The notes under the pieces are model-generated. The model made no database searches, was not told where the DNA came from, and worked only from the letters and a program-made list of their open reading frames with translations. A stretch of DNA of 63,930 nt, counting the filler, from Folioceros fuciformis (lineage: Eukaryota), in NCBI GenBank assembly GCA_049999805.1. It is 5 parts of 5 records of this genome, joined end to end, with 100 filler letters (N's around TTAATTAATTAA, not from the genome) between each part and the next. Parts side by side here need not be neighbours in the genome. Positions count along the whole stretch, not along the records: positions 28,719 to 43,669 come from JBNGIO010005878.1; 4 more parts are not named here. One strand, given 5' to 3'. The translations under genes were made by a program, and so were the position numbers. Every line of letters begins with the position of its first letter. Position 1 is the stretch's first letter. Positions 6,068 through 62,574 of this stretch are shown here, piece after piece.

Positions 6068-9000
6068 ACTGGCTTAGCTTTCTTGCTTGCACTAATGATG
6101 GGATCAAAAGCAAGGTTGCAAGCTTCCTTGCAATGAAGCACAAAATTTGCATCTCGGGCACAGATCCCGAGACATACGAAACAAATTTAAGGACGCTGTA
6201 TGCATGCAGTAGATCTACTGAACAATAAAGAATGCTATATCTAGCAATATCGTATGGCAACTTACGGAGGACGGGTATGTCGGCCCTTGCTGGGTGTTGC
6301 TCCCCGGACCCGAGTGAGGCCCCATGGTGCCCGCACCAGGCCGCAAAGGTTGGAGATGGTGTAAGCTTGGATGCGATGTGCTGTCCTTGGCCTCCACGTA
6401 TGTGAAATTGATGGAATGCGCAATGGGCTCCGTAAAGCGAGAGGGGATCTGAACTTCAGCCCACTGCACGGCAAGGGAAGGGAAAACGAGAAATGAGGAT
6501 GAGCGCAGGCAAAGTCAGGAGGAGCATGCCCAGGCAAGCTCCAGACACAGAATCCAGTGGGCAAAAACAAGAGCAATTCCAGGTAGCTCAGGTATCAAGA
6601 ATGTGCAACGCGTTTGCAAGCAAGGACGACTTACTAGCCTCATCATCAGCTAGCATACATACCGTCCTTGCGGCACAGAACGGGGTGGGAAGCGTAGTTA
6701 CCGAGACCCGTGCAGGAAGCTCTCACTCACACTCACCCCTCGCGCAACACACAACAAACCAGCCAAACCCGACGCTACGTCACAGAGCAGGGAGAAATTT
6801 AAGCAAAGCATTCACAGTCCTGAGCAAAAGAAGAGAAAACAGCTGAGCGTTGAGAAACGCTCTCCATTCACAACCAAGACACGAAGCGTGAAGCTCGCTC
6901 CAAGACCCCAAACAGCATGCAAAACGAAGGCCAGCGCAGGGATCCCACCGTGGGAGTCGAAGCTTGCAACGGGACAGCCACCAGCCGGAACCGCAACCTC
7001 AACCGCAACTGAAGACACAGGCCTGGAGGTTCGGACGAGCTGCAAAGGAGCTTCCGGCAGCAGGGGAGGCAGTGACGCAAGCGGGAAGCTGAAGCAGGGA
7101 TGGGCTGTGGGCAGCGTAATCTGTGAGCGAGAGCTTGGCAGTGGATCCGGATGAGGCGCAGGATGGGGTGGGCTGGGGAGTCGGGACGCAACCTCGCTCG
7201 CTGGGGAGGCAAAGGCGAGAGATTGTGAGAAAGAGACCACGGTCCAAGACTATGAAAGGGAGAGGGAGAGGCGGAAGAGAGAGGCGAGGCAGCGGGGACG
7301 AGAGACGAGAGACGAGTCCGCCATGGCTGCGCTCGAGCTTTGGACGCTGACCGTGCCGTGCCCTGCTCTGCCCCTTCCCCCTCTACTAATCACCACGCTT
7401 ATTCAACTAAACTTTCCCTCCCTTCATTCTAAACACCCAAATCTAACACCCATATTCCCGCTTTAATCCTTGCTTAACACCACCCTTCGTCACCTCGGCA
7501 TCGCAAGTACGAGACACACAAGCAAACAAAACAACCTTCCCTTGCATAACACAAGATTTAAGACTAATAACATGAACGCATGCCAAGGATGGATTAGTTA
7601 TAACATGTAGAGTAATACGGAAGGGACAACATTCCCTCTGTCTCATTCACTCTGCAGGCTTGCCATTTCCGCTCGTGCATTCCGCATCCTTGATGACAGC
7701 TGATTGTCCTAACTCGTCCAGAGAATCGACCGGCCTTGCCTGCCATGGTCTGGGAACATGAAGGCTTAAAGGATCTCTCGACATTGATCTTCCATTCGCT
7801 ATCACGCCGGTTTCGGTTCCGGGGTTTCTGTACATACATTCAACGCTGCTGCTGGCTGCACTTCATGATTTGGGTTTGTTTTCTTCTACTGTCCTCGCAC
7901 TGCAAAGGCAATCCTTGGCGTTATCACCATGTGGTCGTAACCTTTTTGTTATGGATGGAAGAACGTCTTAATTAACTCCATGCTTACTACGTTTGTTCAT
8001 TCATATCTGCAAACTTTCGATTAACTTTCCCACCTAATCCTTTATTTGATGCTAAAGTAACCAACCATGGGAGAGTAAAAGGAGTGCTTGGGCAGACGAT
8101 AACATAACAGGACTTGTTACTTCGACCGGTCAACGCGGTCGCTCATCCGTCAGTGAATCCCTGTTAAGGCGTCGAGTGACCTGTCGCTCCAGTCAACTGC
8201 CATCCACTGCCGCGGTGAAAGGTGAAGGAAAACATGTGCGTGGCGCGACGCCACCGACTGTGACGTTCTTGGCGACCGGGACCGGCAAAAAGGCTCCGCT
8301 CCCGCCATGTTTCGTGGTCGAAACCGTTTCTTTCCACAGCCCTGCTCCAAGGGAGCCCGGCCGGGAGCGTCGCACGCGGGCACGGCCGGTGACCACGCCG
8401 CCGACCTACCGCCACCTACAATGCCTTCTTTCCCAACCAAACCATGGGAAGATAGATGAAGCGGGCCAGGGTAACGTTGGGACATCACGCCAGGGGCGTT
8501 GCGTTGTCGGGGAGGGTCGAACCCGGGTCGGCCGCGTGACAGGCGAGAACACTGACCGACTCGCTATCCTCCGGGGGTTGCGGTTGGGGGTTCGGATTAC
8601 GCAGGGTGGGTCCCCCCTCCCACTGGACGAGTGCGCCAAAGGTGCAACGCGGTAGCTGGGAACTGGGTTTATTGGAGCACGCCGTTTGCGTCTGCCGGTA
8701 CACTCCTGGTGTACGCAACCATGTGGGGGTGCCGGTGTGTACAAACGGGCTTTCACTGGGCCACATGTCAGGTCTAGGGTTTGGGTTTCGTCGCCGCAGT
8801 ACAATGATGGCGCGGGCCGAGGCTGTGATGAAAGCCAGTTCCAGTTACGGGCGACGGCTGATGAAAGCTACCGTGTCGATTGGAGGGAAGTGACGTAACG
8901 GAGGAGTTTCTCCGTTCCGTTGTCCTTGACTTGTGCCACTGGCTTATTGCGCGCACGAGCACGAGGACGGGAACGCCGGGCCCCCGTTCCGTCCGACGTC

Positions 9001-18956: not shown

Positions 18957-19033
18957 TAGGGTTTGAGGTTTATGGAACTACTAATTTATCAAGGTTGCAG
19001 TAGGATTTGAGGTTTATGGTACATATAGGCCCA
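18957..19033 (+). promoter_or_regulatory. Telo-box (TAGGGTTT, 18957-18964) plus site II element (GGCCCA, 19028-19033) upstream of Sas10
   Basis: Both motifs lie within ~120 bp of the ATG at 19078. This pairing is typical of plant ribosome-biogenesis and translation gene promoters. Confidence 0.55.
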
Positions 19034-19077
19034 GTTGGGTAGTAAACGAGGCAATTGGAGACGAGCGTTGTGAAGCG

Positions 19078-21153
19078 ATGGGGAAGCCTAGAAGAGGTCG
19101 GGGATCACGGCTGCCCAAGCGGAGTGGCTGGCAGGCGAAAGCCCGCCAAATGGATCCCAAGTATTTTGATGAGGACCTGTTTGCAAAGCAACGGAATAAG
19201 ATCCCTTTGATGGGTAACGACGACGATGACGACGGCACAGACGAAGAAATGGAAACGCCGGTCTTAGATATTCCGGAGGAGGATACGTCTGGAAGCGAGG
19301 AGGAGGAGGAGGAGGAGGAAGAGTACGAGGAGGAAAAACCTACTGGCTTGGCCGCCAAGATGGCCAAGCAAATAACACTGTTGCGGCGAAAACAGGCTGC
19401 CATGGCCGGTGATGAGGATGAAGAGGAGGAGGGAGAAACGAGGGAGAAGAGGGCATGGGGGAAGTCGAAGAAGGCGTATTACAGTGCAGAGAATGTAGAT
19501 TTTGAGTTGCAGTCCAGTGATGATCAGGCATTTGCTGAGGAGGAGGTTGAGGCGCTCAGGTTGCAGCGGCTGTATGCTGCTTCCATGAGGCCAGAAGACT
19601 ATGGGCTGGAAGAGGAAGAAAGCTTGGAGCAGCTTGTGAAGCGAAGAGCTGACGGGGGACAGAAGATTATGAAGGCCAAAGATAGTGAGCCGGCGAAGCA
19701 GGTGAAAGAAGCTGCTGGAAGCGAGATGGCTGTGGAGCGGATTGTCAAAGATATTAGCTTGCTGTCCAGGGAGGAGCAAATGGAGTATGTCATGAGTGAT
19801 GCCCCAGAGTTGCCAGGTCTTCTTAACGACCTGAAGGTATGTGCTGATGAATTGGAGAACAGAGTAATTCCTCTGGAAGAGAAGGTGCGATCTGGTGTGC
19901 TTCGTGCTACAGAAGATGGATTGATTTATTTGGAAATGAAGCATCTTGTGCTCATGAGCTACTGTCAGCTCATTTTGGTGTATCTGGGGCTGAAGGCGGA
20001 AGGTAAGTCCGTGAGGGGTCACCCTGTGATTCCACGTCTTATGGAGAGGCGTTCGTTAGTTTTGAAGATGCAATCACTGGATAAGAAGGTTGACGACCGA
20101 GTTGGGAAGGTCCTCCAGCCTACGGAGCTGAGCAATGGTTTCGAGGGTGTGAAGGATAAGGACTCGTCGAAGGGCAGACCTAATACGGGCTTATTGGAGT
20201 CGGAGGTTGACACAGACACTCAAGGAGCCGGAGATGTGGAGCGTCCGCCTACGAAAGCTCCACCTTCCATGAAGGAAGACATGAGTTCCGGTGACAGAAG
20301 TGCAGGACAGGAAGCCCGCCGCAGTTCAGCACGCAGTGCAATTGTCGAGGTGCCTGCCGCCGACTCGGAGGGTAGACCTGAGGAACCGAGAAAATTCATC
20401 TCAGCTCAAAGCATGGAAATGATGAGAGAGCGGGAGAGACTGGAAGCTCTTGCCAAGCAAGAAGAAGATCTGTTTGCAAGGGCTCCTCTCTCGAAAGCTG
20501 AGAGCAGGAAGTTGAAGGACGGGAAGAAATCATGGAGTGACTTGGTCCCTATTATGGATGACCTTGCTGATGATGTTACCGATCTAACGGAGATGGACGA
20601 CGGAAAGGGAAGGAAGCGTCGAAGTCTGTCACAAGCTATCGCTGAAGCATGTCATCCCTCTAAGAAGGGAAGGGCAACTTCAGGAGATGCTGACCTACCG
20701 GTTAGGGATGACATCGGCGACAGACGAAACAAGTACGAGATCCAGAAGTCTTCGAGAAAGCGGGAGCGGGTGGACCGACAAGAGAGTGTGGAGGAGCGCG
20801 AGGGCAAGGACGCTGGTGAGGACGAATTTTATCAACAGGCCAAACAGCTGCAGGCGTCGAAAAAGGCTGCAAAGGCTGCCAAATACTCCTGGAAGCCAAC
20901 AATGACTCCGGCCGAGGAACATTTCGAGGGCAGACGAAAAATATCAAGCCAGATGGAGAAGAATAGGGGCCTCACACGGTACAGAAAGAAATTAACTAAG
21001 AACCCAAGGAAGAAGTACAAGCTCAAGCATGAGAAGGCTGTCATTCGACGGAAAGGACAAGTGCGCGAAGTGAAGCTTGCTTTGAAGCCATATGGGGGAG
21101 AAGCGACTGGAATTAGAACAGACATTAGTCGCAGTGTCAGATTGCAATATTGA
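19078..21153 (+). CDS. SAS10: Sas10/Utp3 (Something about silencing 10) SSU-processome protein, intronless
   Basis: Intact 691-aa ORF: acidic N-terminus, WGKSKKAYY, Sas10/C1D region (DAPELPGLL..YLEMKHLVLMSYC..HPVIPRL), SGDADLP, and C-terminal Sas10 domain (EGRRKISSQMEKNRGLTRYRKKLTKNPRKKYKLKHEKA..YGGEATGIRTDISRSVRL). Confidence 0.95.
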   Translation: MGKPRRGRGSRLPKRSGWQAKARQMDPKYFDEDLFAKQRNKIPLMGNDDDDDGTDEEMETPVLDIPEEDTSGSEEEEEEEEEYEEEKPTGLAAKMAKQITLLRRKQAAMAGDEDEEEEGETREKRAWGKSKKAYYSAENVDFELQSSDDQAFAEEEVEALRLQRLYAASMRPEDYGLEEEESLEQLVKRRADGGQKIMKAKDSEPAKQVKEAAGSEMAVERIVKDISLLSREEQMEYVMSDAPELPGLLNDLKVCADELENRVIPLEEKVRSGVLRATEDGLIYLEMKHLVLMSYCQLILVYLGLKAEGKSVRGHPVIPRLMERRSLVLKMQSLDKKVDDRVGKVLQPTELSNGFEGVKDKDSSKGRPNTGLLESEVDTDTQGAGDVERPPTKAPPSMKEDMSSGDRSAGQEARRSSARSAIVEVPAADSEGRPEEPRKFISAQSMEMMRERERLEALAKQEEDLFARAPLSKAESRKLKDGKKSWSDLVPIMDDLADDVTDLTEMDDGKGRKRRSLSQAIAEACHPSKKGRATSGDADLPVRDDIGDRRNKYEIQKSSRKRERVDRQESVEEREGKDAGEDEFYQQAKQLQASKKAAKAAKYSWKPTMTPAEEHFEGRRKISSQMEKNRGLTRYRKKLTKNPRKKYKLKHEKAVIRRKGQVREVKLALKPYGGEATGIRTDISRSVRLQY

Positions 21154-21677: not shown

Positions 21678-23902
21678 GGTGTTTGCCTCAAGATGTTTTT
21701 CGTGGTGTTCCGCTTCATCAGCTGGCACGGACACCAAGGTTATTGGCTCTTTGTGTGGTGGATCATGGCCTTTCGTAAGCCTCATGCAGTCTGACTGTCC
21801 TTCGGGTACCTCGTGCTAAATGGTGACTATCTGCAACCTTGACTGCTGCAGGTAATTGTGGAAAAGAAGATCATGAGGGAAAGTAATCTGACAAGGCATG
21901 ACATTGGTAGAGAAAAGTTTGAGGCGAAGGTATACAGCTTTCAAACTGTGATGCCCCGTGATCTGAAGGAGTGAATGTATCCCACAGTATGGATTGTGGC
22001 AGGTTTGAGAATGGAAGAATCAATATGGTGATGCATCTCGAGACAGCAACGGCGAGTAGGGAACTCGCTTGACTGGTCTAGAGAAGTATGTTTCTTTGTA
22101 CAATCTCGTCACGCATGTCAAAGCTATCTAGTGGTTCGAAGAGTGATACACCAGAGCATGGGAGAGTGTTTTACAATGGATGCCAAGTTGTCCGAAGCTG
22201 TAACTGAAGCATTTGTACGCCTTTATGACGAGTGCCTGATCTACAGGTCAGTGCTGTTACCTCTAAATCAGTGACACCTTTCATCTACTGTGTGTTTGCT
22301 TTCTGTTCTGGTGCCTGACAGTTGTACTCTGCAGAGATGATCGCCTTGTAAACTGGGATTGTGCCCTTAAGACTGCCATTTCGGAGATAGACGCAGCTCT
22401 TTGCAACCGTTTTAAACAACATTCTCCTGATTATTCCTTACTTCTTCTCCTAGTACCTGTATCTTTAATGTTGACTCAGCCTTCGATCCTAAAAACCCAA
22501 AGGAGCCTATCAGGTGGACTACAAGGACCTAGAAAAGAGGGAAGCCATCAGGGTACCGGGTCATGATCACATCCGTCGCATATCCGCTGGAACGTGGGAG
22601 TGGTGAAATCGTAGTAACCACCCGACCAGAGATTGTGTTTGATGATAGAGCGTTAGCAATTCATCCAAATGACGATAGGTACAGGCATCGACATGGAAAA
22701 TATGTGATACACGCATTCGACAGGAGAAGAATCCCTATTATTTCATATGCTGAGTTGGTGGACATGATATGTGGAAGTGGTGCGGCGAAGGTGGGCCTAG
22801 AATTAAAGCTGTTTGAGGAAACCTGGCATGCGTAAGCTATCTGAGTTGGTGCTCGATGGAATTTTGTACATGGGCACTGGCTTGCACGTCCTGCATGGTG
22901 CGAGCAGATTTTTGAACTCCAAAGGGAGCTTATGTTGACCGAGTTGTACAGTAGCTAGTAGCAGCCTATGTCTCTGGGCTCGAGATTCTCTGGCTAACAA
23001 TTTGGTTGTATGTGTGTTTCACAGAAATTGGGATCTCTTGCAGAAAGTGAAATTCATCGCGTGCAATACTGCAGATGGCTGGGGAACATTCGGCCTTGGT
23101 GCATATCAAGGCAGCTGTTGTGGGCTCATCGTGTCCCTGTGTGGTACGCTGATTTTGATGACGATGAGCTGGAAGGACTTTGGCCTTATAGCGAGCACTG
23201 GGTCGTTGGTAGGAATGAAACGGAAGCCAGGGCCAATGCCAACAAGAAGTTTCTTGGGAGGAGGTTCTGGCTGGAACAAGATCCTGATGTTCAGGACACT
23301 TGGTTTTCGTGTGGTTTATTCCCTTTCTCTGTGATGGGGTGGTCAGAGGAAACTGCAGATATGGGAACAGTGTACCCGACATCACTGCTTGAAACCGGAC
23401 ATGATATTCTCTTCTTTTGGGTCGGTAGAATGGTAATGATGGGCATGAAGGTGACCAATGAAGTCAGAGACGAAGCAGTCAATTCAGGGAGTAGTGATCT
23501 ACAGATGGAACGTAAATCTGCTCAGTGAAGGAAGACCTTCTCGTAAGAAGAAAGAGATCCGTCCAATTATGCACAGCAACAAAGGTTGAAGAGTAGATAG
23601 GACAAGGAGTTCTCTTCTCCTGCAAGGATGTAGAGAAATCCTTGCCCATGGTCCCATCCTTTGAAAGGATGCAGTATGGTTAGGTTTCGGGTGTTTAGTT
23701 TGGAGTGACTAATACTTAATTTAAATATTGTGATGACTAATACGTTATTTTTAAATCTTGTGGGGATTAGTACTTAATTTAAATCCTGTCTTTGCGGGGG
23801 TAATCGTTGGGAGGGAGAGGCGGGAGACCTGGATGTGCGAACACCGGAGACGGATCAGACGATTGAATCGTTCAAGGTGGAGAGGGACCTTGCGAAGTAT
23901 CT

Positions 23903-25042
23903 ATGGGGATATTGAAGGGGCTATTGAAGGGGCGATTGAAGCGGATAGTGGCGAATGTTGCTGAATCAGTGTGCGGAAGATCACACCCGGCGGTCCTGCC
24001 GAACACAGAAATGGATGAATCCTGGGAAATGATAGAGCGACTCACGATGGGGGACGTACCTGAGCAGAGCGAAGGCTCACGAATCCGGAACACTGAGGGG
24101 CCTTCGAGACGTCACGTTCCACAGAAGCTTCAACGGACGGTGAAGGCGCATCCAGGAGAATGTAATGCTATGGTGTTTGTGCCCGGAACCGGATCGCTGA
24201 TGACCGGAGGTGGTGACTGCTGCATCAAAGTTTGGGATACGATTTCGGATTTGAATCCTAGACGCTTTGGGACTGAGTCTTTGAAGTCATTTTCCGGCTC
24301 CATTCGTGACATGGCCGTCTCCCCGGACGGCGAGCTTCTGATCGCTGCGTCCAGCGAGGGCGAGCTTTTTGTCTGGGCCGCCAATTCTGGTCGGCTGTTA
24401 CATACGCTCAGGGGGCATGAAGATCGTGTCTCTGCGGCTGAGATGTTTGACTCCGTGAGCCACCAGGCTTTCAGTGGGGGGGATGACAGAACTCTTAAGG
24501 TCTGGGATCTGAGGAGGGGTTCCACTCTGATGACCTGGCCATGCAAGAGCCCGTGCACTTCCTTGGCTGCTTCAGCCCCCTGCTGTGCATGGTCTGGCCA
24601 TCTTGATGGGAGTTTGAGTGTTTGGGACAATCGAGGACGTAAGGGACCGACTGTTGATGTGGCGGGCCCTCAGGCCGTCAGCTCTGTCACGGTGTTCAAT
24701 GCTGGCTTCAATATCTTGACCGCGAGCAGAGACAACACGTTGAGAGTGCTCGATGTACGACAACTGAAGGCTGGGAAGACTCCCGACGCGTACACTGCTC
24801 CCGAATTCCAAGTGACCACCAACTGGACCCGCTCCTGCGTCAGTCCAGACGAGAAATACATTGCTTGCGGGTCTGCGGATGGCTCGGTCTTCCTGTGGGA
24901 TATCAACACCAAAGAGAGTTGCGGCCGGCTGAGAGGTCACGACAGCCCCGTGCGCACCTGCGCGTGGAGTCATCAGTCTGCGGGCAGTAATCTGATCAGT
25001 GGCGACGATAAGGGATTCCTTTGCCAATGGGAAGGAGCATGA
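23903..25042 (+). CDS. WD40 beta-propeller protein resembling the C-terminal domain of plant ATG16, intronless, no coiled-coil ATG16 domain
   Basis: About seven WD repeats. VPQKLQRTVKAHPGECNA..LMTGGGDCCIKVWD, HTLRGHEDRV, DRTLKVWDL, SGHLDGSLSVWD, ILTASRDNTLRVLDVR and NWTRSCVSPDEKYIACGSADGSVFLWD match ATG16-family WD40 signatures. Confidence 0.85.
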   Translation: MGILKGLLKGRLKRIVANVAESVCGRSHPAVLPNTEMDESWEMIERLTMGDVPEQSEGSRIRNTEGPSRRHVPQKLQRTVKAHPGECNAMVFVPGTGSLMTGGGDCCIKVWDTISDLNPRRFGTESLKSFSGSIRDMAVSPDGELLIAASSEGELFVWAANSGRLLHTLRGHEDRVSAAEMFDSVSHQAFSGGDDRTLKVWDLRRGSTLMTWPCKSPCTSLAASAPCCAWSGHLDGSLSVWDNRGRKGPTVDVAGPQAVSSVTVFNAGFNILTASRDNTLRVLDVRQLKAGKTPDAYTAPEFQVTTNWTRSCVSPDEKYIACGSADGSVFLWDINTKESCGRLRGHDSPVRTCAWSHQSAGSNLISGDDKGFLCQWEGA

Positions 25043-28618: not shown

Positions 28619-28718
28619 NNNNNNNNNNNNNNNNNNNNNNNNNNNNNNNNNNNNNNNNNNNNTTAATTAATTAANNNNNNNNNNNNNNNNNNNNNNNNNN
28701 NNNNNNNNNNNNNNNNNN
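28619..28718. other. Assembly gap (N44-TTAATTAATTAA-N44 spacer); same spacer at 43670-43769, 59177-59276 and 62475-62574; plain N100 at 54812-54911
   Basis: Identical 100-bp artificial spacers. Confidence 0.98.
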
Positions 28719-29953
28719 CTTCAACCTGAACCCAGCTCGCTGGCTCCAAGCCTGGCATGCCGCTAGCAGCCACACCTAGCCCTTCGCCTGCTCCCGGCTC
28801 CGGTCTGGTTCAACCGACCCACCATTGCACTGTCGACCCGAATTCGGCCCGCCGGCCAGACTCCAGCCCCTAGCCTGGAATTCGTATGCCAGTTGTCGGA
28901 TTCTGCGTCGCTGCCTGCCAAGCTCTCAACAGCCAGGCGGGAGGCAGGATGGCCAGGCCAGTGGCCAGCTTGCTGACCAGCCAGGCCGCCGCAAGCCAAC
29001 CTGCTCTGCCTGCCTGGCAGCTGCGATCGCCAACTTGCCCTGTAGCCGCTATCCAATCAGCCTGCCTACTAGCTTGCCGCGATCCAGCCGGCCTGCTATC
29101 TGGGTTCAATTCGCTTGCACCAGCCTGGATGCGCGACCTCCTGCTTGCCTGGATCCGGCCGTCCCCCGCCTTGATCCACCAACCCCCCGATCTAGCCGTC
29201 TATCCACCGTTGCCTCCCTGGATCCAGTACACCTGCGGCCTGGAGTCTGGTAGCCTCGCCCGCCTGCCTGGTCATGCTCCAGCCAACGCTCCAGCAGCTT
29301 GTCTGCTTGCCTGCGTGCCTGACTCCTTGTAGGATTCCAGCAAGTTGGCATGCCTCCAACCAGTGCCCACCTTAACCAACCGCTGGATCCACCTCCCGCT
29401 GCCAGCTTAGCCCCGGTCCACCTCCAGCCCGCCCAGTCCGCTCCAGCACCATCCACAACCAATCGATGGCGGCGCCTACCTGCGGCCTGGATCATAACGA
29501 GGCCCACCTGGGAAGAGAGAGGTTTCGATCCAATACAGTAGGCGGTCCATCAGCAAAATCATTGTAGCTAGGCTGGTTAGGGTTGGCCAGGTGCGCTCCT
29601 CGAGTGTCGTATATCTTCATTGCTCATGAGGGGGGAGGGGGGGTTTTTTGGTATCGGATGTTCGGCAGGATATTGTGAGAAGTAGAGACCCTTCGGTAGC
29701 AACCGGAGTGTTGAATGGGTTTCGAATCGTGGAGGAAAAGAAGAGATCAAGAGCGAAGACAAGAGGTGGGAGGGAGGAGCACGCTTCAAGCAAAAAACAA
29801 GGTATGAGTCCCCTGCTGGTTAGTACTCTTAGCACATATATGCTGTGGCACTTCTACAACATACTAAGAATTCAAACATGCATATAACTCTTCAACACAA
29901 CACCAATCATCCATCAACTTGTATCACCTGTTAATGAGGATTAGGTTGCTAGC

Positions 29954-32692
29954 TCATAGCTTTGACAACTTCGCATAGTTTGGGCAAAACCAATCTTCTT
30001 GCGGTACTTCTTCTAAGGCTAGTTGTAGACAAAATAGGTGATACCCTTGATTGTAATGGTCGCACAAAAGCATGGCATCTTCTTTGTCATTGTGACCACA
30101 AATGCGGCATTCTAAGTCCTTGGGTGTTATCCAAGTGCTAGGTCGTAGCTCTAGATCCAGATTTGGCAAACGACAAGGAGCTAGGTTCTTCAAATGATCT
30201 TGCCACCTTTGTCCATCAGATCCCTCCAACTCCACCAGCCCAATGTCCTTAACAACAACCACCCAGATAATTGTGCACCTAGCATTACTATCAAGTGTAT
30301 CTAAAGGTGGTTGAGCCAAGTATCCGTAATCAACATGTTCAAATCAACGCCCTTTGGGCTTCCAACTCCCTCCTTTTGTATGAGCATAGCGCAGTCTGTC
30401 CCTATGTTGTGCAATGGCAAAATTTTCCATTGCCATTCGAATTATATGCTGAAACAACATTGCTAGCTTTTGCAGCTCTCTCATGCAACCATCCACATCT
30501 TACCATAATATTGATCTTTCCATAGCAGCTTGCTGCACATTAGGCAATTGTGGATGCCTCCCAAACAATAGAAAATATTGAGAAAAGTTGTCGAGCGCGG
30601 CTTGAGTGCTTACCTGATAGCCGAGCAACATGTATGGCACCACTTCATCCCAATCTTTTGTGCTATTTTGCAAGCAATACTTCCGTACGGCACACTTGAC
30701 AATTTGTACTCCCCTTTGAGCCAAACCATCTATTTGTGGATGATCCTTGCTTGTGCGACGATGATCAATGAGCGCCTTGTCCATAAGCTACTAAAATTCC
30801 CCGCTAAACTTTGATCCTTGATCCGTCACAACTTAAACACATGCACAAAACCTTGACAACACACATTGCAAAAATGCCTGGCTAGTGTTGTACGACATCT
30901 TCACATGAAAGACAACAACTTCAATGTATTTGGAGAAGTACTCAATCATCAACATCATGTGACGATTTCCTCGCGATGTCCTTGGCAATTCCCAGAACAA
31001 GTCAACTCCCCACTTGTAGAACAATCCTCTTATAGGCAGAGAATAAAGCACCGCATTATTCACCGTGAATCTTGATTCGATCACATGATTCGCATCTAGC
31101 AATAATCTCCTGCGCTTGCTTGTGCATGCTTGCCCAACAATATCCTGGTGTCAGCATGCTCAAAGTGTGTTTGACACCAAAATGTCCTAGTTGCTCGTGC
31201 ACTTGCATAACCAATGCCTCACGTCTGTTGGTGCTGGCACCACCTTACGTTGACCATTAGACTGCAACATGTACAGCTTCCTATCTTCCCACATGTATTG
31301 TTTTTCCTTGTGTTGCAGCTGATCCTTGTGCTGTTGACTAGTCGCGTTAACTATTTGGCCAGTCCTAATGTAATCCATTAACTATTGATTTGCCCATGCA
31401 TCTCGAACATAATAGGCGCTCATAACGTAGGCTTCCCCCTCTTTGTTTATACATTGCAAGCTCAGCTACGTTGCGACTCACATTGACGACTTGCAATGTC
31501 ATTATCCAATCATGTCGTGCCTTATTAAGATCCATGCTACTTTCCAATGGGTTCATGAATAACTAGCAAGTTTCCTTGTCAACTTATTGTTTGTCATCAA
31601 CCAATGCAATGGTTGATGATCTGTAACAACTTCAAATCTTTGTCTATGTACATATACTCGAAAATGCATCACTACCCACACAAGTGCTAGACACTCTCCT
31701 TCATAAAAACAATAGTTCGCCTCTGCTACGTTCGTACTACAACTACCATAAGCAATAGGGTGTTCTTCTTCATCCCCAAAAGTTTGTGCTAGCACCGCAC
31801 CCAATCCAAGCTTGCTCCAGTCAGTATACAACAAAAATTCCCGAGTAAAGTATGGTCTCCGTAAAACTGGACTGTTGCATAGCCTATTCTTCACGTCTAG
31901 TAATGCCAACTCTTGTTCTTGCCCCCAACACCATTCTTGACCATTCTTCAACAACAACGTCAATGGCCTCACAATTGTTTAGGGTTTTAGGGTATGGTAT
32001 GTTAGGTATGTACCTTCGATAATAACTAACAAGTCTAAGAAATGTTTGCAACTTGGAAATGTCAGTTGGCCTCAGCAATTTCATAATGGCCTCCACTTTG
32101 GCCATGTAAGGTGAAATGCCCTATGGAGTAATCTCATGTCCTAAGTACAACACCTTATTGTACGCAAACGTACGCTTACAAGGATGACATTTAAGCCCCC
32201 ATCCCTTCAACCTAGTAAAGAATTATTCTAACACCTGAATTTTCTCTTCAAAAGTCTTGATAAAGATAATAATGTCATCCACATAACACCTTCCCTTAGG
32301 CACATTTGCCAATCCACCATTAGCATTCTATTGAAACACCACAACATAATTCTTTAACCTAAATGGTATCCTTAGCCATTCATATAATGAATCTCTTCCC
32401 AAGAATGTCGTCTTACTCCGATCCTCCTCCACAATGTCAATTCAGTTAAAGCCTTGCCTAAGATCCAATGTGAAGAAGGAGCAAGCACTTCCAATGTCAT
32501 CAAAGATTTCATTAGGAGTAGGCATTTGATACCCATGCAATTTAGTGGCAGCATTCAAGCGACAATAATGTCCACACATTTGCCGGTCCACACATTCTCT
32601 AGCCTCATTCCTCTTTAACGGTAACACAGTGGCTGCCGCCCAATTAAAATTTGAGACCCTAATCAATCATGCCTTGAGCAATCCTTGATACA
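29954..32692 (-). mobile_element. Degenerate Ty3/Gypsy pol (RT-RNaseH-integrase) with C-terminal PHD finger; 5' part cut by Copia A LTR
   Basis: RT (RQMCGHYCRLN..FFTLDLRQGFN, YVDDIII), RNaseH (FLLYTDWSKLGLGAVLAQ..YEGECLALVW), integrase (HFGVKHT, KWGVDLF, HPQIDGLAQR), then CRIC..MLLCDHYNQGYHLFCL..VPQEDWFCPNY. Order RT-RH-INT indicates Gypsy. Confidence 0.9.
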
Positions 32693-35571
32693 TGTCAAAC
32701 ATGATTGTGTGTTATTTCTTAGATGCATGCAAATAGTAATTAGTTAATAATTAAGTGATGCTAATAAATGTCATTAGTGGCAATTAATAACTATTTAGTG
32801 AATATTATTAAAAAATATAATATTAGAAAATATAATCTAATATAAGTCAATCAGATAGACACATAACTACATGTGTGGATGTGGTTATAGCAAGTCTCAA
32901 GTAGTAGGCATGAAAGCCTAGCTCAGCGGTGTCCGCTGCAGTTGTAAGCTTGCATTCTCTTGCTTTTTAGGAATAGGCTTTCGCTTGAGGGAGCATTCTC
33001 TTGTTCGATATCGAGTTGAGGTGTTCGTGTGTAATATGAAGGATCGCTAGAGGAGCCACATGGTGAAGGAGGAGAAGAGGAAGCAAGGAGGAGAGGAGGA
33101 AGAGAGATCACACTCTCACACACAGTCCCTATTGCAAGGGAGCTTGAGGGGGTATTTATACCCTATAGAAGAGCTCCCAAGGAAGCTTCACAAGAAGTGC
33201 ATAGGAAGCTGCGCAAGAAGCTTCCTACATATTAGCTTAAGCTAATCTAAACAAATGATAGTTAACTAGACACTAATCTTATACTAAACACATTAGTTTA
33301 AGCACATTGGGCTTTAATAACCCTACAACCTCCCACTTAAAAGCCAATTTACCTTCATATGAGAATGGTCTACCTCATGCCCATGAGTGTCCGAGCTTAT
33401 GCGAATTGCTCTGTAGAGAGCTCCTTGGTAAGAACATTTGCAGGGTTTTGATTGGTATGAACTTGGACAAGCTGTACCCTCGTGTCCTCCAACACCTCTC
33501 GAATGAAGTTATACTTCACTTCCACATGTTTGGTCTTTGCATGAAACACTGGATTGTTCGCCAATTGGATAGCACTTTGGCTATCACAATGCAACACTCA
33601 ACCTTGATCCCCAAATCTCCCACTAAACGAGCAAGCCACATGGCTTCCTTGCATGCCTCAGTCGTTGCAACATACTCGGCCTCTGTGGTAGATAGTGTTA
33701 TGCACGACTGCAAACGAGATCGCCATGAGACTACCCCTCCAATGCACATGAAGACATAACCTGATGTGGACCTCCTTTTCTCCATATCCCTGGCATAATC
33801 AGCATTCGTATATCCCACGACAGATGCATCTTCACTACCAAAACATAAGCACAAAGCTTTCGTACCATTTAAGTGCCTCATAACTCCTTTCACTGCCTCC
33901 CAATGCTTCCTACCGGGGTTTGACATAAAACTGCTAACCACTCCCACTAGAAAGGCAATGTTAGGACGTGTAGCAATCATTGCATACATCAAACTCCCTA
34001 CAGCTGATGAGTATGGAACCTTCTCCATTTTAACTTTGTCCTCCGCAGAGCTTGGGCAATCCTTGCTTGAAAGTTTCACATATGGAGGCAATGGACTACT
34101 CAATATCTTTCCCTTCTCCATATTGAAACGTTGAAGAACCCTGTTAATGTATTCAGTCTAAGACAAGTAAAGCAAATGCTTCTATTTGTCTCAACAAATA
34201 CGCATGCTAAGAATATGGCTTGCCTCTCCCAAGTCTATTATGTTAAAGCGACCATTCAAATTTGACTTCAACGCTGAAATCTCATCACTGTTAGTCCCAG
34301 CAATTAGCATATCATCCATATAGAGGACCAGAATGAGCAAGCTTCCATCCTTAGCTTGCTTCGTATAGAGGCAATGATCTTCATCGCTACGTTTGTAGCC
34401 TTGAGAAAGCATAAACGAGTGGAATTTGAAATACCACTCCCTGGGTGCTTGCTTCAAACCATAAAGGCTCTTCTTTAACCTGCACACTAGACTCTCTTTG
34501 CCCTTCTCAATGAAACCCTCTGGTTGCTGCATGTATACCTCTTCCTGGAGATCACCATGCAGAAATGCCGACTTCACATCCATCTGGATAAGTTCCATGT
34601 CGTGCCTTGCAACCAGACCAAGTATACATCGCAAGGTGGTCATTTTGACAACTGGCAAGAAAATCTCATCAAAGTCAATACCTTGCTGTTGCTTAAAACC
34701 CTTAGCAACCAATCGTGCCTTGTACTTGGGTTTGCCATAATGGGGTATGTCCTTCATCTTATACACTCATTTGCATGGCAATGCCTTCTTGCCCCCAGGC
34801 AACCGAACCAACTCCCAAGTTTGGTTCTTATGGAGCGAATCCATATGTGATTGCATCGCCTTCTCCCACTTGTCCTTGCTAGTCACTGACATGGCCTCTT
34901 GGTAACAAGAGGGCTCCCCACAATCCGTCAACATGACATAATCAAGAGATGCAACATACATGTCAGTAGGACGTGAAATCCTTCCTGACCTACGAAGCAC
35001 TGGCGCCTCGACCGGAGCTGGTTGCACTCTTTCCTCTTCTACGAGTGGAGGAACTTGTTCCTGGACATCACGACGTTCAACTTGCGCGGGCCGGTCAAGT
35101 CCATCTTCTTGGAAGACCACCCGTCGCACCTCCACAGTTGGAGTAGGCTTCTTGTGCATCTTGGTCTCATTGAAGAACACGTTATTGCTGCGAACCACCC
35201 TCTTGGCCTCTGGATCCCATAGAGGCCAAGAGGCACAAAGGATAAACGCACACCTTGCGTGAGAAATCATCTATGAAAGTGACAAAATAGGATGCATCGC
35301 CTAATGATACAATGGGCATAGGTCCACATATGTCATAGTGAACAAATTCAAGAGGTTTACTTTTGTGTTTACCTCTTGCTCCATGTGGTGACTTTGTCTG
35401 TTTCCCATACAAACAGTGCTCACACACGGAGAAATCGGAGAAGTCAAAAGTAAGGACGTACCCAAAACGAGATAAGATCTTTATTCCTTTTTGAGACATA
35501 TGTTCTAACCTTCAATGCCACAAGGAAACACTTGGTTGTTCCGTTACACAAATCACATGATCCTTGACAGT

Positions 35572-35826
35572 TAAAGACATTTAGCAATGAACGAGAACGA
35601 TCTGAGAGCTGAGCAAACGCACGCGTGTTAAAGGTTCAATGAAAGTACATGAACCAAGTGTGTAGAGAAGTAACCGCCTATGACCTAACTGAAAACATTA
35701 TTAAATTATTATAAACTTGCTTAACCTAATGAACTGCTAATAGGTTTTTGGCTACCTAGCCCTAGAAGCAATTAATTAAATATTAATAAACCCCGAGTAG
35801 GTATGACCTAAAACGGGTTTCCAATA
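35572..35826 (-). repeat. 3' LTR of Copia B (255 bp)
   Basis: Direct repeat of 41581-41859 with ~4 substitutions and a 24-bp indel. Confidence 0.96.
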
Positions 35827-38800
35827 CGCCCCCTCAGACCTACTCGTATAAAAACGGGTGTACACAAGAAACAGGCTTGAGGCTAGGTTGAAAGGTAGCG
35901 CGCCATCTCCAAATTTCAGAATCCCACTGTCCCAGGCACTCGACGATCACAGATGCATACGCCCTGATGGCAGCTCACGTGCTAGAGTTCGTTGTAGCAG
36001 TAATGCTAGTTGTATGGATTCTGCTCCCGCCTCAGCCCGTGCTAGTTTCCTTGATTAGATTCGCATGATGATTCATCCAGGGCTGATTCTGATCCTATTG
36101 CATGTTGCTTGCAGTTGGAGCGCCCGAGGTGATCATGTGCGTTACACACAGGAGCTGCGCGATAAGAGGGTGCCCTAATGCTGCTGGAGACTGATGCTTC
36201 AGGGAACTGAAGTCTTCAAAGAAGTTTTACTGGTCGCCCCCTCAAGAGAAGTGTTCTGTAGGCCGAGGGAGCCTCGATGCTGATCATGTGTTGTCTTGGG
36301 AAGCCCTTTGGTCAGGACATCAGCTACATTTGATGCTGTGTGCACATATTTCAGCAGTATGGCGCCCACAGCTACGGCTTGTCTAATAAAATGAAACTGT
36401 ATCTCTATGTGTTTAGACCTAGCATGTAGAATAGGATTAGCTGTGAGTGCAAAGGCTGATTGATTATCGCACTGAAGGACTGTTGGGTTTGGCTGTGACC
36501 AGTGGATGCCCTCAAGGAATTGTCTAACCCATAAAATCTCACGTGCAGCTAGGGATAAGGCCCCATATTCAGCTTCGGTTGATGAGAGGCTTACAGTAGT
36601 GAGCTTTTTAGATTGCCAGCTTATGGCTGACCCACACAGAATGAGACAATAGGCTGCTATGGATTTTCTAGAGTCAACGTCCCCTGCCCAATCTGCATCA
36701 GAGTATGAGGTAAGGGTGGTGCTGTTGGCTGATGAATACTTAAGGCTAAAATGCTGAGTGCCCTTAAGGTATCGGAGAATTCTCTTAACAGCCTGCGACC
36801 AGGGTTAGAGAGAAAATGGGAAACAAGACCAACGGCCTGGGAAATGTCTGGACGGGTCCTTCCAGCCAAGTAAAGGAGACTGCCTACGGCTTCTCTATAG
36901 GGAATAGTAGACATGTCCTCTTTTTCTGATTCAGTCCTTGGGCAATCCTCCAAAGAGAGTTTTTCTCCAGCTGATACAGGTGTTGAAACAGGGTTAAGAT
37001 CAACTAGGTTAAACTTGGTTAACAATTGACGAATGAAGTGGGATTGATGTATTGTAACAGTGTCTGCTGCAGGATCAAAGAGAAACTAGATCCCTAAGGC
37101 AAATTTAAGGGGTCCCACATCAGTCATGTCCCATTCTTGGGATAAGGCTTGCTTGATTTCTTGCAGGATCCGCTCATCGCTGGCGAAAAGGAAGTTATCA
37201 TGAACGTAAAGTGCTATAATGCATATATGATTCTTCCTCTTCAAAACATATATGCTACTGTCAGCGTCAAGAGGTTCGAAATCCAAAACCTTCAACTTTT
37301 CATCTGCCCGTGCATTCCAAATACGTGCAGATTGTTTTAGTCCATAGAGAGACTTTAACAGCTCACATACCTTGTCTTTGTCAATGATGTACCCTTCAGG
37401 TTGGTGCATGAAAATAATCTCGTCCAAAGGCCTGTTCAAAAAGGTCGTCTTGACATCCATTTGATGGACCAAAAACTTGTTGGCGACTGCATAGTAGAGT
37501 AATATTCTCATTGAGGTAGGTTTTACGACGGGACTGAACGTTTCGTTATAGTTCAACCCTTGAATCTGGGTATAGCCCCTTGCGACTAATCGGGCTGTAT
37601 AGCGAGCCACTGATCCATCCGGGTTCAATTTCAATTTAAATACCCACTTAGAGGTAATTGCTTTCCTTCCGGGTGGTAGGTCCACTAATTTCTAGGTTCC
37701 ATTTGATATCAAACTCTTGTATTCAGAATCAATTGCTTTTTGCCACTCAGCCTTTTGGGGGCCTGACAATGCTTCACGGTATGTAGCAGGTGTGTCAGGT
37801 GGTTCCATGATTGTGGAGGCAACAGAACTGGCGAAAACTGCAAGACTTGAACGTGGTGCATTGGTGGGTTGATTCTCATGGGACCTAGAGACGAGGGTAT
37901 CACCAGGTTGATAGGGTGGATTGAGCCATTCAGGTGGAGGGCGATGTATGCGGGCTGACCTTCTCAAAGGTATGGTGTCTTGCACTAAATCTAAATCAGC
38001 GATCGGGTCTAGAGGTTCTGCTGGTTTGACAAATTCAGGTTCAGGTTCAGGTTCATCTAAAATGTCTAGATCTAAATCGTCTAGAATAGGAATTGGGGCT
38101 GGTGCTAGAGGTGCTACATGTTGACCTGCAGGGGCTGGTGCAGCTACTAGGGGAGGTTGAATAGCTGCTTGATTATGCACTGCTACATCAGGCTGTACAG
38201 CATCTAGAAGGATGTCTGGAATGAAAGTAACAGTGTCAATATGTTCTGTATCATCTGCAGCTGAATTTGTTGGTGTGTGTCCAAAAGCTGATGGTTCAGA
38301 CAAGGGCATATGACTTGAAACAAACTGAAGATGACGTGCAAGGATGAAGCTTTCATTAAAACTGACACTGCGAGCCAAAGTTAACTGCCTGGTGTAGGGA
38401 TTGTATAATTTGTATCCCTTTGACTGTTCTGAATATCCAACAAAGACATGTTTGGTTGCACGGTTGTCCATCTTGCCGCGCTTATCTTTTGGGATATATG
38501 CATAAGCTGCTGCACCGAAAGTTCGAAGATGACTGATTCTGGGCTTATGCCCACTCCATCTTTCAAAAGGTGTATAGGAAAAAAAAGGCTTAACAGGAAG
38601 CCTATTCTGCACATAATTAACGGCTGATACTGCCTCAGCCCAATAACCTCGAGTGAGGCCAGCAAGTGATAGTGTTGCTCGGGACCGTTCCTGTATCGTC
38701 TTGTTATATCTTTCCGCATAGGAATTTTGGGCTGGATGAAAGGGGACAGTAAGCTGGTGGATAATGCCATGCTGACGTAGGTAAGCCTGAAAATCCTGAC

Positions 38801-41580
38801 TCAAATATTCTTTTGCATTATCGCTGCGAAGCTTCTTAACTACTTGTCCAGTTTGCTTTTCAGCCATCCAGATATAGTCTAAGAACTTCTCATATGTTTG
38901 ATGTCTATTGTGCAGAAAATAGATGCAGCAATAGTGACTCCATTTGTCTAAAAATGTCAGGAAATAAATTGCTCCACCAAAGGAGACTGTCGACATAGGT
39001 CCGCATATGTCGGTATGAATTATGTCCAAGAGTCCGGCAACCTTGGTTGGCTGAGGATCAGCATATGGCAGCTGCGCCATTTTACCTACTTAGCAGTTCT
39101 CACAAAAGAGATGATCAGGTACTTTGAAAGATATAGGGTCCTTATACAATTCAGGCTTATTTACAAGCTGTCTGATGTATGTTATGCTTGGATGACAAAG
39201 CCGGCTGTGCCATAAAAATACTTTGTCTACATCAAGACGTGAATCTACAACCATGGCTCTAGATTCTCTGGAGGTCAGCTCAAAACGATACAAATCATTG
39301 AAAGTGACACCCATTCCAAGGACAATTGAGGGATGTTCTGCAGATGTAACATAGCAACCTGAGGGTGTAAAATTCACTTGCAGGGCATGATCTGAAATAA
39401 GCTTACGGACTGATAAGAGATTTTTCGTCATGCTCGGTACATGCAGAACTTCCTTCAGATGGACCTCCTGTCCAGCATTTAACGCCAACACCACTGTTCC
39501 ACATTCGGCGATTGATAGACCACTATCGTCTCCCAGCAAGACGAATTGATTAGTTGGAGCATCCAAGTAGGTAATAAACTTGTCTCTAGACTAGCATATG
39601 TGATTTGCCGCACCGGAGTCGAGAAACCACATGTTTGCATCAGCTTTGGTTAAAGATAGGCAGATTGCAAGGATAGTTGGTGGTTTTATGCCTTGTGTGT
39701 TGCTTGACTGTCCACGAGTCACAGCATGTGATTCTGCTCCAGGAGGGGCTTCACGCCGGGGCTCGCCGGCACGCTTCTTTCGACATTCACTTTCAAAATG
39801 CCCTGGTATCCGACACCAGTGGCAAGTTCCCTTTGTCTTCCTCTGCTGTTGGGGATAAGATGGGGATGTGTAAGGTCTCCTTGGACCTGCTGGTGGCCTG
39901 TAAGGGCCACGTCCCCTACCTCGCCCTCTCGAGGTAAAGAGAACTTGTGTTGAATGTTGTTGCCCCCTTCCTGTTGCAGTCCTGCTCGACTCCTCTTCGA
40001 GTAATGCACCGATTACCTCTGAAAGTGTAATGGCGGGTGGTGCCCCTGCTGATGTTGATTGGATAGCTTGTCTTATAATTGAATTTTGTGAGCTAACAAA
40101 AGCTCTATAACTAGGTGGGAGAGATGTTAAGAGAATTATTGCAGCCTGCAATTCCGGAATATCGGTTCCGCAAGAGGAGAGTTTTGCCCTCAACGTACGA
40201 AACTTATGAACATGGTGTTCCACACTATCAGAGTCTTTCATCCTAAGTGCATAGAAAAGCCTTGTTGCGTTCATCAAGGACATAGAGTCCTTTGCAGCAA
40301 ACATATTTTTGAATACTGCCCACACTGCAGCTGACGTGCTCTGTCCCTGAGTGTGTTGAACCATATTTTTATCCAAAGCTGTGAGGATAATGCTCCTTGC
40401 CCTTTTATCCTGTTTGTTCCAGATGGATAATTTATTGGCATCTGTTGGCTTGGCAACTTTCCCAAGTACCATCTCCATGAGATCGTGCTCCTCGAGTAAT
40501 GCTGTAATTCGCATCTCCCAAACTGGGTAATCCATTCCATTAAAACGATCTCTGTCTTTGAAGTCGATTTTTGTGGTGTTGTTAATGATGGTGTTGGGTG
40601 GTGTACCAAAACCACCTTCACCACCACCACCCGAGCCGCCTCCACCGCCTCCTCCAACTCCTGACATGCTGTGTGTTGATGTGTGCAGGACAGCTAGAGG
40701 GTTATGACGACGTGGATAACGGGGTAATCTATGTGGTGGTGACCACGTACATGGTAGGACTACACCTACCTACAACTATCAGGGATTAGAGGGCCTGGGG
40801 GTCTTCCCTAAACAAGCTGGAAATAGATTCTAAAATCTGTTCTACAGGTTCTGGGATAATCATTAAACCAAAAATTGGATCGCAACGGGATACATCTAGG
40901 TTCTTGGGTGCTGTATCTGATGTACTGTCAAGGTAAAGATTGAATTTTGCTGTTAATTGTAGCAATTTGAAGTTCAAGATACTGATTTGTGCACTAATGC
41001 ATGCTATGTCCTTCCAATGTTGTACCTTGTCGTGATATGATAAGTCCTCTATTAATGCTATCTGAAATTTCAAGTCTCGAAGTTCATATGGGGAAATGTG
41101 AGACACTGGCTGTGAGGTGAATGGAGATGGACGGCAAATTGGCGTGTTCTGGCCTAGGGAATTGATCTGCTAAGAGAAAATTAAGGCATGCTTGGGACAA
41201 TAGACAGGGGTCTCTGATCAACAGCCTGTACAAAAGACTGGTTTGTTCTTCTTCCTCCCTGTCATGTTGATTTAAGAAGAAAATCTGTTATTGTGCCTTA
41301 CAGCACGCTTCCATTTGCTGAGTGCTTGCCAATGTTGTCTCAAAAGGGTTCTATAATTCTCCTTCTCGTCCTCTGCCAGGGAGTGCTGATGTGTGGTGGA
41401 TTCCACACTGGGCATGGTGGTTGGACACTGTCCATTCAGAAATCTAGCGATTAGCACACCAAATTCCAGATTGATTGAAATAGGGATTGCAATGCCTCCA
41501 GGATTGAGAACGCTGGCTGCCTTTTATATTTGGCTGAATTATTGCCATAAGGCATGATGCGCTCCATGGCTCTGATACCA

Positions 41581-41859
41581 TAAAGACATTTAGCAATGAA
41601 CGAGAACGATCTAAGAGCTGAGCAAACGCACGCGTGAGAGCACACAGAAAGAAGTGATAGTTAAAGGTTCAATGAAAGTACATGAACCAAGTGTGTAGAG
41701 AAGTGATCGCCTATGACCTAACTGAAAACATTATTAAATTATTATAAACTTGCTTAACCTAATGAAGTGCTAATAGGTTTTTGGCTACCTAGCCCTAGAA
41801 GCAATTAATTAAATATTAATAAACCCCGAGTAGGTATGACCTAAAACGGGTTTCCAATA
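41581..41859 (-). repeat. 5' LTR of Copia B (279 bp)
   Basis: Abuts the PBS; direct repeat of 35572-35826. Confidence 0.96.
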
Positions 41860-43221
41860 ACAGTGGTTACCTAAACTGAGTACAAAGTGCCACACTTCGA
41901 TCCACGAGCTAACACAAGAGAACCTTTGGAGATCTTCCAAGAATTATCCCCAACCAACAGTGGTAGCCAGCATCATCCAACTGCCTTGTGCTAATCATGC
42001 TTTTTGTCAACTTCGGAACATGCTTAACATCCTTCAGTATGAATGAAGATCCGTTGTCAAACTTCAGCTGCACATCACCAACGCCTGCAATCTTGCATGT
42101 GTAGTTATTTCCAAGCCAAACACATCCTTTCCTAGTAGCATCATAGGTGCTAAACCACTCCCTATGCGGAGTAACATGGAAAGATGCTCCAGAGTCAATT
42201 ATCTAATTAGAGAATAAGTGACTATCCAAGGGTGTCAATTGTGCAGAATCTAAGGAGGAAGAGATAAGAACTTCTCCATCATCAACAGAATTCACCTCGT
42301 CAGACTTGATACTCGGACTTGCCTTGTTGTCATTTGCTTCTTCTCCTTTCCTTTGTCCTTTTGGAACTTCTCGCAGTCCCTTCTGATGTGACCCTTTTTG
42401 TGATAATGATAACACTCAACATTGTTACGACTACGAGATTTGCTATGGGAAAGGCTTCGCTCCTTTTGCTTCCCCTTTGAAGTGGACCTTCCTCTCAGCA
42501 TAAGGGCATTGGAACCTTTCAAAGGTTCTATATTCTTCTTGTTCACCTCTTCTGTTAACAGGGTACCTTCTATATTTACAATGGTGAGACCACTGGCAGG
42601 AGCAGAATTACTCAGAGCTGTACGAAAGGTGTTCCAACTCTCTAGTAATGTGACCAACAGAAACATAGCTCTCACAAAATCTGGGAATGAGATACCTTGA
42701 GATGAGAGCTGGCTGAAAATGGTATTAAACTCATTCAGATGATCGAACATCCTCGTCCCTTCCTTTATCTTCAAGTCCACCAGCTGTTTTTCAACCAGTA
42801 CACCTGAGAAGCCATACTTTGCTTCTCATATAGGTCACACAACTTTTGCTGTAGCTCGTAACTTGTGGTCTTGCTTTTCACATTGAAGTAGACCGACTTC
42901 GACAATGTTAGCATGATGGTAGACCTAGCAAGCTCATCTAGATCCTTCCACTCATCCTGAGTCATACTAACAAGTTTCACACCTAGCAACTTTCTGAGCT
43001 TGATTTGCTTTTTCTGCACTAGAACATTATACACTTGCGCCTTCCTGCGCCTAGCGTGGCGGGGTTGCCGTCCCTCCGCGTGGTGCGGCCCTCGCCCTAA
43101 AATCCGCCCCGTGCTCGTGTCATGGCGCCCAGCCTGGCCCTCGCACGAGGTGGCGGCACCCTCGTAGGCCCCGCGCTCAGGGGGGTGAGATTGTATTAAA
43201 TACTTAGGCAGTTAGGGTTTA

Positions 43222-43444: not shown

Positions 43445-43770
43445 CCGGTACCGGGCCATAGGGTTGGGAAAGTTCGAGTCTAAGTCTGGTGATTATTTTA
43501 ATATTAATTAAAGATATATAATATTAATGATTAAATAATATAAAATAATAAAATAATAAAATAATAAAATGAACATAGGAACGAGAATATGTGGGGTATG
43601 TCAGGGTCTGACGACAGGCAGGCTGATTGCCTGGTTGGTCTGAACGGTCATGGAGGCCGTACCCTAGCTNNNNNNNNNNNNNNNNNNNNNNNNNNNNNNN
43701 NNNNNNNNNNNNNTTAATTAATTAANNNNNNNNNNNNNNNNNNNNNNNNNNNNNNNNNNNNNNNNNNNNG

Positions 43771-62430: not shown

Positions 62431-62574
62431 ATGCGATCCATGATCGCGAGGGGCACGAGCAGGTGTGTAAGCGGNNNNNNNNNNNNNNNNNNNNNNNNNN
62501 NNNNNNNNNNNNNNNNNNTTAATTAATTAANNNNNNNNNNNNNNNNNNNNNNNNNNNNNNNNNNNNNNNNNNNN

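Follow-up and report, generated by a model that had tools for sequence, protein, structure and literature searches.

A decayed Ty3/Gypsy copy in Folioceros fuciformis with a PHD finger at the end of its integrase

The PHD finger that closes the integrase of a decayed Ty3/Gypsy copy in Folioceros fuciformis is the normal ending of this protein in an old family found in green algae and early land plants and partly described before. The copy lies in a stretch of 63,930 nucleotides (the window), whose five parts are joined by runs of N around the linker TTAATTAATTAA (28619-28718, 43670-43769, 59177-59276 and 62475-62574); because of this filler, several "repeats" appeared in the repeat scan. That the copy belongs to this green-lineage family is almost certain. 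In the overall explanation that we favour, and which we consider rather probable, a dead, 5′-truncated copy retains an integrase tail of catalytic core, barrel and PHD finger, and the finger would serve in tethering to H3K4-unmethylated chromatin.

The copy in the window and its surroundings

Pfam placed RVT_1, RT_RNaseH, Integrase_H2C2 and rve on one strand in the Ty3/Gypsy order, and a profile built from alignment A1 had Ty3 Gag-Pol as its best match (E 1.1e-22), which bears out the Ty3/Gypsy identity proposed in the first-pass annotation. All of these domains are read from the minus strand. The reverse transcriptase (RT; 32001..32687; RVT_1, 57 bits) retains its YVDD motif, contains several stops and matches its closest relatives at 43-48% in tblastn. 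RNase H occupies 31556..31927 (RT_RNaseH 101.8 bits, RT_RNaseH_2 99.5 bits), and the Integrase_H2C2 zinc finger (31077..31229; 47.9 bits in Pfam, also found by tblastn) stands in another frame, with frame changes on both sides of it.

The catalytic core, the SH3-like barrel and the PHD finger share one frame on the minus strand. When the open frame at 29954-30343 was extended back to 31069 by reading five in-frame stops as X, the core (rve, 30737..31015) was matched over aa 19-111 with E 3.8e-6 and 27.5 bits, under the cut-off of 32.6. It is broken by the in-frame stops, and a motif comparison with P0306 found its third catalytic position to be non-acidic. Because of this non-acidic position and the frame changes, which lie near 32.0, 31.2 and 31.1 kb, the window copy is dead, and it is also 5′-truncated.

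An SH3/Tudor-like beta-barrel at 30161..30343 (minus strand), recognised from an AlphaFold model and from alignments A1 and A2, in both of which it is conserved, represents the C-terminal domain of the integrase and ends in the family motif just before the PHD linker. In the model of the last 129 window residues (pLDDT 74.5), a five-strand barrel (residues 1-61) is followed by the PHD finger. The barrel resembles the PHF19 Tudor (Z 7.4), NusG KOW (Z 6.1) and RSV integrase C-terminal (Z 5.7) domains, middling scores that speak to the fold class only. Unlike three chromovirus elements of the flank, which score as SH3_Tf2-1, the window barrel gives no SH3_Tf2-1 score.

The peptide quoted in the first-pass annotation occurs exactly in the 129-aa open frame at 29954-30343 (minus strand), and PF00628 matches aa 79-121 of this frame (E 2.6e-10, 40.6 bits; Pfam cut-off 24). 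The C4HC3 finger itself spans 29975..30109 and is followed by five residues and a stop at 29954-29956; the interval first assigned to it, 29954..30200, comprises the PHD proper and part of the linker. The integrase does end in a PHD finger, as had been claimed, since the match lies in the same frame as rve, and the two zinc-binding Cys said to have become Tyr are ligands 4 and 8. Decay by transitions, the cause put forward for these changes, is plausible: transitions account for 343 of the 456 differences listed for run X1 over 28720-33500, and across 80 decayed metagenome copies, which come mostly from one host type with repeated insertions and are not independent, 59 of the 72 losses in the ligand columns are to Tyr. 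CG and CHG are depleted in the element (observed/expected 0.53 and 0.54, against 0.77 and 1.22 in a host gene), as expected for a methylated plant repeat.

Family homology begins abruptly at the RT, at about 32687. Throughout the window, including the sequence beyond the neighbouring Copia insertions, tblastn detected neither gag nor protease nor DNMT of the family; a separate DNMT query gave 0 matches in the window, the element being truncated there at the start of its RT, and the long C-terminal tail of the algal relatives gave 0 from 73 tails. Matches in tblastx outside the element were scattered. Motif search and blastn detected no family-type terminal repeat near the ends of the copy, and TG...CA ends with a target-site duplication were not found for this truncated copy, whereas its relatives have split repeats and 4-bp duplications. 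Pfam found no Chromo domain in the window.

Read depth shows how the finger is embedded in the host genome. In the host DNA runs, depth is 5-12 over 29520-29839 and 64-233 (X1) over 29840-32719, the PHD finger included, and depth over the finger equals that over pol. With the single-copy level set at about 8-12 by exactly matching contigs, the PHD region stands at about ten times that level or more, which suggests at least 10 diverged copies of the region in the host, summed contig depth being no copy number. The repeat boundary falls within the bin 29840-29999, and a short non-coding tail that is still multi-copy (29840..29953, minus strand) is marked by a step in depth from 5-12 to 92-209 in X1/X2. 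The junction between PHD and flank is not an assembly artefact, because a perfectly matching contig, with 0 differences over 29664-30010, links the C-terminal end of the PHD to the single-copy flank.

At the cut-off point of the element sits an AT-rich repeat (32718..33032, unstranded) with a depth of 434-494 in X1, against 64-233 over pol, and with rearrangement joints; its position does not imply membership in the Gypsy element. Outside the Gypsy element follows the 3′ LTR of a neighbouring Copia (33037..33327, minus strand), which shows very high depth, with a loose end at each of 33037 and 33327, is preceded by a purine tract and has RVT_2 (223 bits) upstream of it. The Copia as a whole extends over 33037-43211 (minus strand), with gag at 42292-43211, RT at 33516-35300 and an extremely high-copy LTR, and a younger Copia is nested inside it (LTRs 35572-35826 and 41581-41859).

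Other observations concern the window at large. One contig in each of X1 and X2 skips 30221-31656 and represents a deleted derivative in which the core is missing and RNase H runs directly into the end of the integrase barrel. A host gene for Sas10/Utp3, with a long open frame of 722 aa, lies at 18985-21153 (plus strand), a long open frame for a WD40 protein at 23867-25042 (plus strand), an NYN domain at 57007-58920 (minus strand) and a weak POX match at 3467-6073 (minus strand).

Relatives with the same integrase ending

When the integrase-PHD frame was run through HMMER (phmmer) against 1.84 billion representatives, 346 matches reached E<=1e-30. Among the best 150 (E<=1.4e-58), 139 align in a single stretch through query residue 360 or beyond, so that core, linker and PHD are aligned together, and 127 keep all eight zinc ligands; in the 33 relatives scanned, rve and PHD were found in all and Chromo in none. 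These counts favour PHD-bearing matches, since the protein and locus searches used PHD-containing queries. A query with the DNMT region only, which is independent of the PHD, gave 10 integrase-bearing matches: Pfam recognises a PHD in six, another carries a diverged Cys/His finger, and the remaining three break off short of that position. Together with the multi-copy depth in the host, the alignment of 139 of the best 150 relatives through the finger makes the PHD the normal last domain of the family integrase. The top cluster in the ESM Atlas (PHD 99%, rve 94%, score 0.89) is a lead only. In a word-indexed search, the 129-aa barrel-PHD frame had no match among longer proteins; the full HMMER search and a relative-based search did match. 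Viral contigs yielded four matches, PHD-only or weak.

The closest proteins form the cluster of P0175; they match at 51-52% over integrase-PHD and, like the window copy, terminate shortly beyond the finger (2-15 residues). Named family members come from Haematococcus lacustris and Volvox reticuliferus, and a complete transcript of Coleochaete scutata ends three residues after the PHD. The modelled integrase of an intact relative matches the PFV and Ty3 integrases. Three Marchantia proteins match the N-terminal half of the family: P0357, P0359 and P0362 (Mp_8g17980, MARPO_0204s0011 and MARPO_0084s0073) do so at 33-40%, including the DNMT, one of them is annotated as a DNA methyltransferase, and all three may be element-derived.

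In quick SH-aLRT trees, both unrooted, the window RT falls among PHD-terminal members with the DNMT before the RT. The first tree had 86 rows; the second had 59, after one long branch and 26 thinned rows of the tail group had been dropped (27 of 86). Tree labels came from crude regular expressions, and "noDNMT" or "noPHD" often denotes a partial protein. The RTs of the family and of three chromoviruses lie on opposite sides of a long branch with support 95-99, the chromovirus sample being three flank elements of one family with SH3_Tf2-1 and Chromo, without REXdb references. The first-pass description of the PHD as standing instead of a chromodomain therefore holds for position; replacement of an ancestral chromodomain finds no support in trees with so few references, in which the RT does not group with the three sampled chromodomain elements.

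The closest relatives are elements of 8-10 kb with a gag-like region, protease, DNMT3-like C5 methylase, RT, RNase H, H2C2, rve and PHD. The DNMT precedes the RT in 37 of the 41 loci with enough upstream DNA. In a second, algal group, whose PHD is followed by a long tail, the methylase is placed between RNase H and integrase; in both placements the PHD always comes after the integrase barrel. The end of the PHD was reached in 82 of 87 fetched loci, and three were cut by contig ends; the 80 metagenome loci, being largely decayed copies from one host type, are not independent.

The ends of these relatives have an unusual organisation. A repeat A of about 300 nt (partial in one case) is found at both element ends in nine long loci, and downstream of the PHD stop a G-run leads into a 175-nt repeat B, which two bases separate from A, itself followed by a second B; B1/B2 pairs occur in 27 of the 68 loci that contain sufficient DNA. 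The relatives have TG...CA ends, and exact 4-bp target duplications were found in five of the nine loci (four distinct insertions), with one mismatch in three and one end mis-called. The full-length relatives are DDE-integrase elements with DIRS-type ends, a combination for which the literature search found no mechanistic description. Split repeats were seen in L005:2424-11738, L021, L029/L054, L045, L060, L062, L070 and L077, and the inner B-A join resembles an end-to-end (circle) junction.

Because A/B repeats and target duplications enclose the PHD in these relatives, the finger lies within the element boundaries. This bears on the alternative that the window copy represents a one-off capture of a host PHD exon, or that the PHD lies outside the element. 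The finger does resemble host ATXR5/KDM5/BAZ fingers, and the ends of the window copy cannot be drawn; against this, the order core-linker-PHD is the same in algal and moss-type relatives, the repeats and duplications surround the finger, and depth over the PHD equals that over pol. Shared order, repeats with duplications, and multi-copy depth rule out such a capture, to which we assign next to no probability.

The family has further features. Both the DNMT3-like domain and the split repeats went beyond what the first-pass annotation had noticed, and both are lost from the truncated window copy. Among 127 relatives, 73 have tails of more than 200 aa after the PHD, and these are of algal type (P0006, P0054, P0067, P0117 and others). 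The tails contain a Tudor-like barrel, which PF21743 matches weakly (E 0.007-0.25), as well as a domain that resembles SAM methyltransferases and carries an SPWF motif (D12 N6-MTase E about 0.03; 0.90 to phage SAM methyltransferases in the Atlas). Algal-type relatives with the C5 DNMT between RNase H and integrase plus this tail form an EpiLTR-like set with PHD in place of Chromo. Family members L081-L086 were found in Synechococcales, Mollicutes, Halorubrum and Halanaerobiaceae MAGs and are most likely mis-binned algal or plant contigs. A distant Gypsy in a Dysgonomonas MAG (L087:646-3702), probably a contaminant, has rve, SH3_Tf2-1 and PHD; it matches the family at 26%, its RT is nearer to chromoviruses, and it is apparently an independent integrase-PHD fusion.

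The predicted ligand and role of the finger

The modelled PHD superimposes on the ATXR5 PHD-H3 complex (Z 9.3, rmsd 1.5, 52 aligned), and its top fold matches are ATXR5-H3, DPF2 and ORC1b with unmodified H3. By sequence, its best solved relatives are the ATXR5 PHD (E 4.3e-11), WSTF, KMT2C, KDM5A/B PHD1, BAZ2 and UHRF1/2. According to the text of PMC3241642, H3K4me0 readers lack an aromatic cage and carry a cluster of acidic residues ahead of Cys1 and a hydrophobic residue preceding Cys3, and in that of PMC4225485 the equivalent KDM5B residues L325, D328 and W351 bind H3K4me0. The columns of the family agree with the residues published for such readers (KDM5 PHD1, ATXR5, BAZ2 and UHRF1 type). 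Among 127 family fingers, Asp follows ligand 3 in 125 and Leu precedes it in 96; two places before the His stands Gly in 114 and Trp in none; ahead of ligand 1, Asp occupies the third place in 67 fingers, and 100 have an acidic residue among the six preceding places. The window finger itself carries K-D-L-E-C, L-L-C-D and G-Y-H. A point against the assignment is that the acidic residue of the family presumably lies one place nearer to Cys1 than D308 of KDM5B. Likeness in sequence and modelled fold shows that the family PHD has the residue pattern of unmodified-H3K4 readers, and unmodified H3K4 is its predicted ligand. Against it, plant PHD signatures without H3 binding also exist (PMC9640981).

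From this pattern we infer, with a slight leaning in its favour, that the PHD may act in targeting integration to H3K4-unmethylated chromatin. Because relatives are flanked by 4-bp target duplications, insertion of family elements would be carried out by the DDE integrase. The PHD would stay on the processed integrase and hold the integration complex on nucleosomes that lack methylation at K4 of the H3 tail, and this tethering may steer insertion away from H3K4me3 promoters.

The methylase of the element would provide a different role for the same ligand. The ADD finger of DNMT3A couples H3K4me0 reading to methylation, and the PHD could likewise read H3K4me0 and so allow the new copy, or the DNA around it, to be methylated by the co-packaged DNMT. 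Such a partnership would fit with the DNMT3-like domain seen at 37 of the 41 informative loci, with DNMT3A/B/C as the best solved relatives of that domain (DNMT3A being the top match), and with a DNMT region in which Pfam finds no reader domain. Nevertheless, RT and RNase H lie between DNMT and PHD, where protease processing would normally separate the two, and the DNMT varies in position, standing before the RT in one group and between RNase H and integrase in the other, whereas the place of the PHD after the barrel is constant; service to the methylase is thus an unlikely role for the finger.

Targeting to unmethylated H3K4 has also to be weighed against binding without any chromatin-state bias, in which the PHD would attach to nucleosomes generally, or to a host protein, for integration efficiency or nuclear retention. 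Unmodified H3K4 is abundant across the genome. Post-insertion selection can also yield biased distributions, as the texts of PMC6673714 and, for Gypsy-7a, PMC9940879 describe. The H3-contact columns, however, are conserved over 33-46% overall identity, which implies sequence-specific reading of the H3 tail, and in known readers K4 methylation blocks this reading (text of PMC3241642). We judge binding without bias to be improbable and retain targeting to H3K4-unmethylated chromatin as the preferred role.

Described elements and the place of the family among them

Elements of this kind are partly in print. For KnitGypsy-Dnmt3, de Mendoza et al. (2018, PMC5890265) describe a Gypsy pol that includes a Dnmt3-related domain, together with repeats of DIRS-like structure, and a 2026 preprint calls such elements streptophyte Gypsy-DNMT3 (10.64898/2026.05.21.726589). 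The closest relatives share with KnitGypsy-Dnmt3 the Gypsy pol, the Dnmt3-related C5 methylase and the DIRS-like repeats, whereas the window copy has lost DNMT and ends. The term PHD is absent from the searched text and three supplements of PMC5890265, a search outside which its domain drawing (Fig. 4c) falls. The protein-search matches include no Klebsormidium-named protein; kinship is set by the relatives and by matching descriptions, and on this footing the family is very probably kin to Gypsy-DNMT3.

In the text of Craig et al. (2023, PMC9940879), Gypsy-7a_cRei of Chlamydomonas reinhardtii is an element whose Gag-Pol includes a PHD and whose insertions show an intergenic bias, and a chromatin-targeting hypothesis was given there. 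It resembles the family as a Gypsy Gag-Pol with a PHD, a comparison made by description. The same text gives it 15.4 kb and conventional long LTRs, unlike the family, and the order RT, RH, PHD, INT in the legend suggests that there, again in contrast to the family, the PHD precedes the integrase. PHDs are also reported as accessory domains in CR1 ORF1, Ginger1-9, Chlamys and REM1 in the texts of PMC6673714, PMC8557442, PMC2836005 and 10.1101/2021.11.30.470311. CR1 ORF1, Ginger1-9 and Chlamys carry a PHD, yet they are not LTR integrases. In REM1 of Chlamydomonas, the element of Perez-Alegre et al. from 2005, the PHD reportedly lies in a separate antisense ORF with a chromodomain.

The text of the REXdb paper (PMC6317226) contains 0 matches for PHD, and PMC3350952 likewise none. 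No account of a PHD at the integrase terminus in a Gypsy lineage of land plants came up in literature searches, with figures and bioRxiv supplements outside their scope. PHD-bearing Gypsy elements, Gypsy-DNMT3 and the PHD targeting hypothesis are already in print, while an integrase-terminal PHD of H3K4me0 type, and 4-bp duplications together with split repeats, appear to be under-described.

A joint reading of these features is possible, and we offer it tentatively. The family could be a deep Ty3/Gypsy clade of its own in chlorophytes, charophytes and land plants, absent from the REXdb text, with an H3K4me0 reader and a DNMT3-like writer in one polyprotein that would choose silent chromatin and mark the new copy. 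It might integrate by DDE chemistry with DIRS-like split repeats, the inner B-A junction templating both ends, and the algal tail would combine the PHD, a Tudor-like barrel and a second methyltransferase of amino type.

The window copy, being dead, adds only one more host to the family; the family itself has a wider bearing. Chromodomains are the textbook route to heterochromatin for plant Gypsy elements. Chromoviruses (Tcn1, Chlamyvir, Galadriel, Tekay, Reina and CRM) and the family have in common the Ty3/Gypsy order and a histone reader directly after the SH3-like integrase barrel, the reader of the family being PHD, not Chromo. The pairing of this reader with a DNMT3-like writer and split repeats bears on how retroelements handle host methylation. 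If our reading is true, an unmodified-H3K4 reader at the position of the chromodomain would be a convergent solution, in which the logic of the chromodomain is realised with a different reader, and this idea is testable, as intact algal members exist and the residues predict a ligand.
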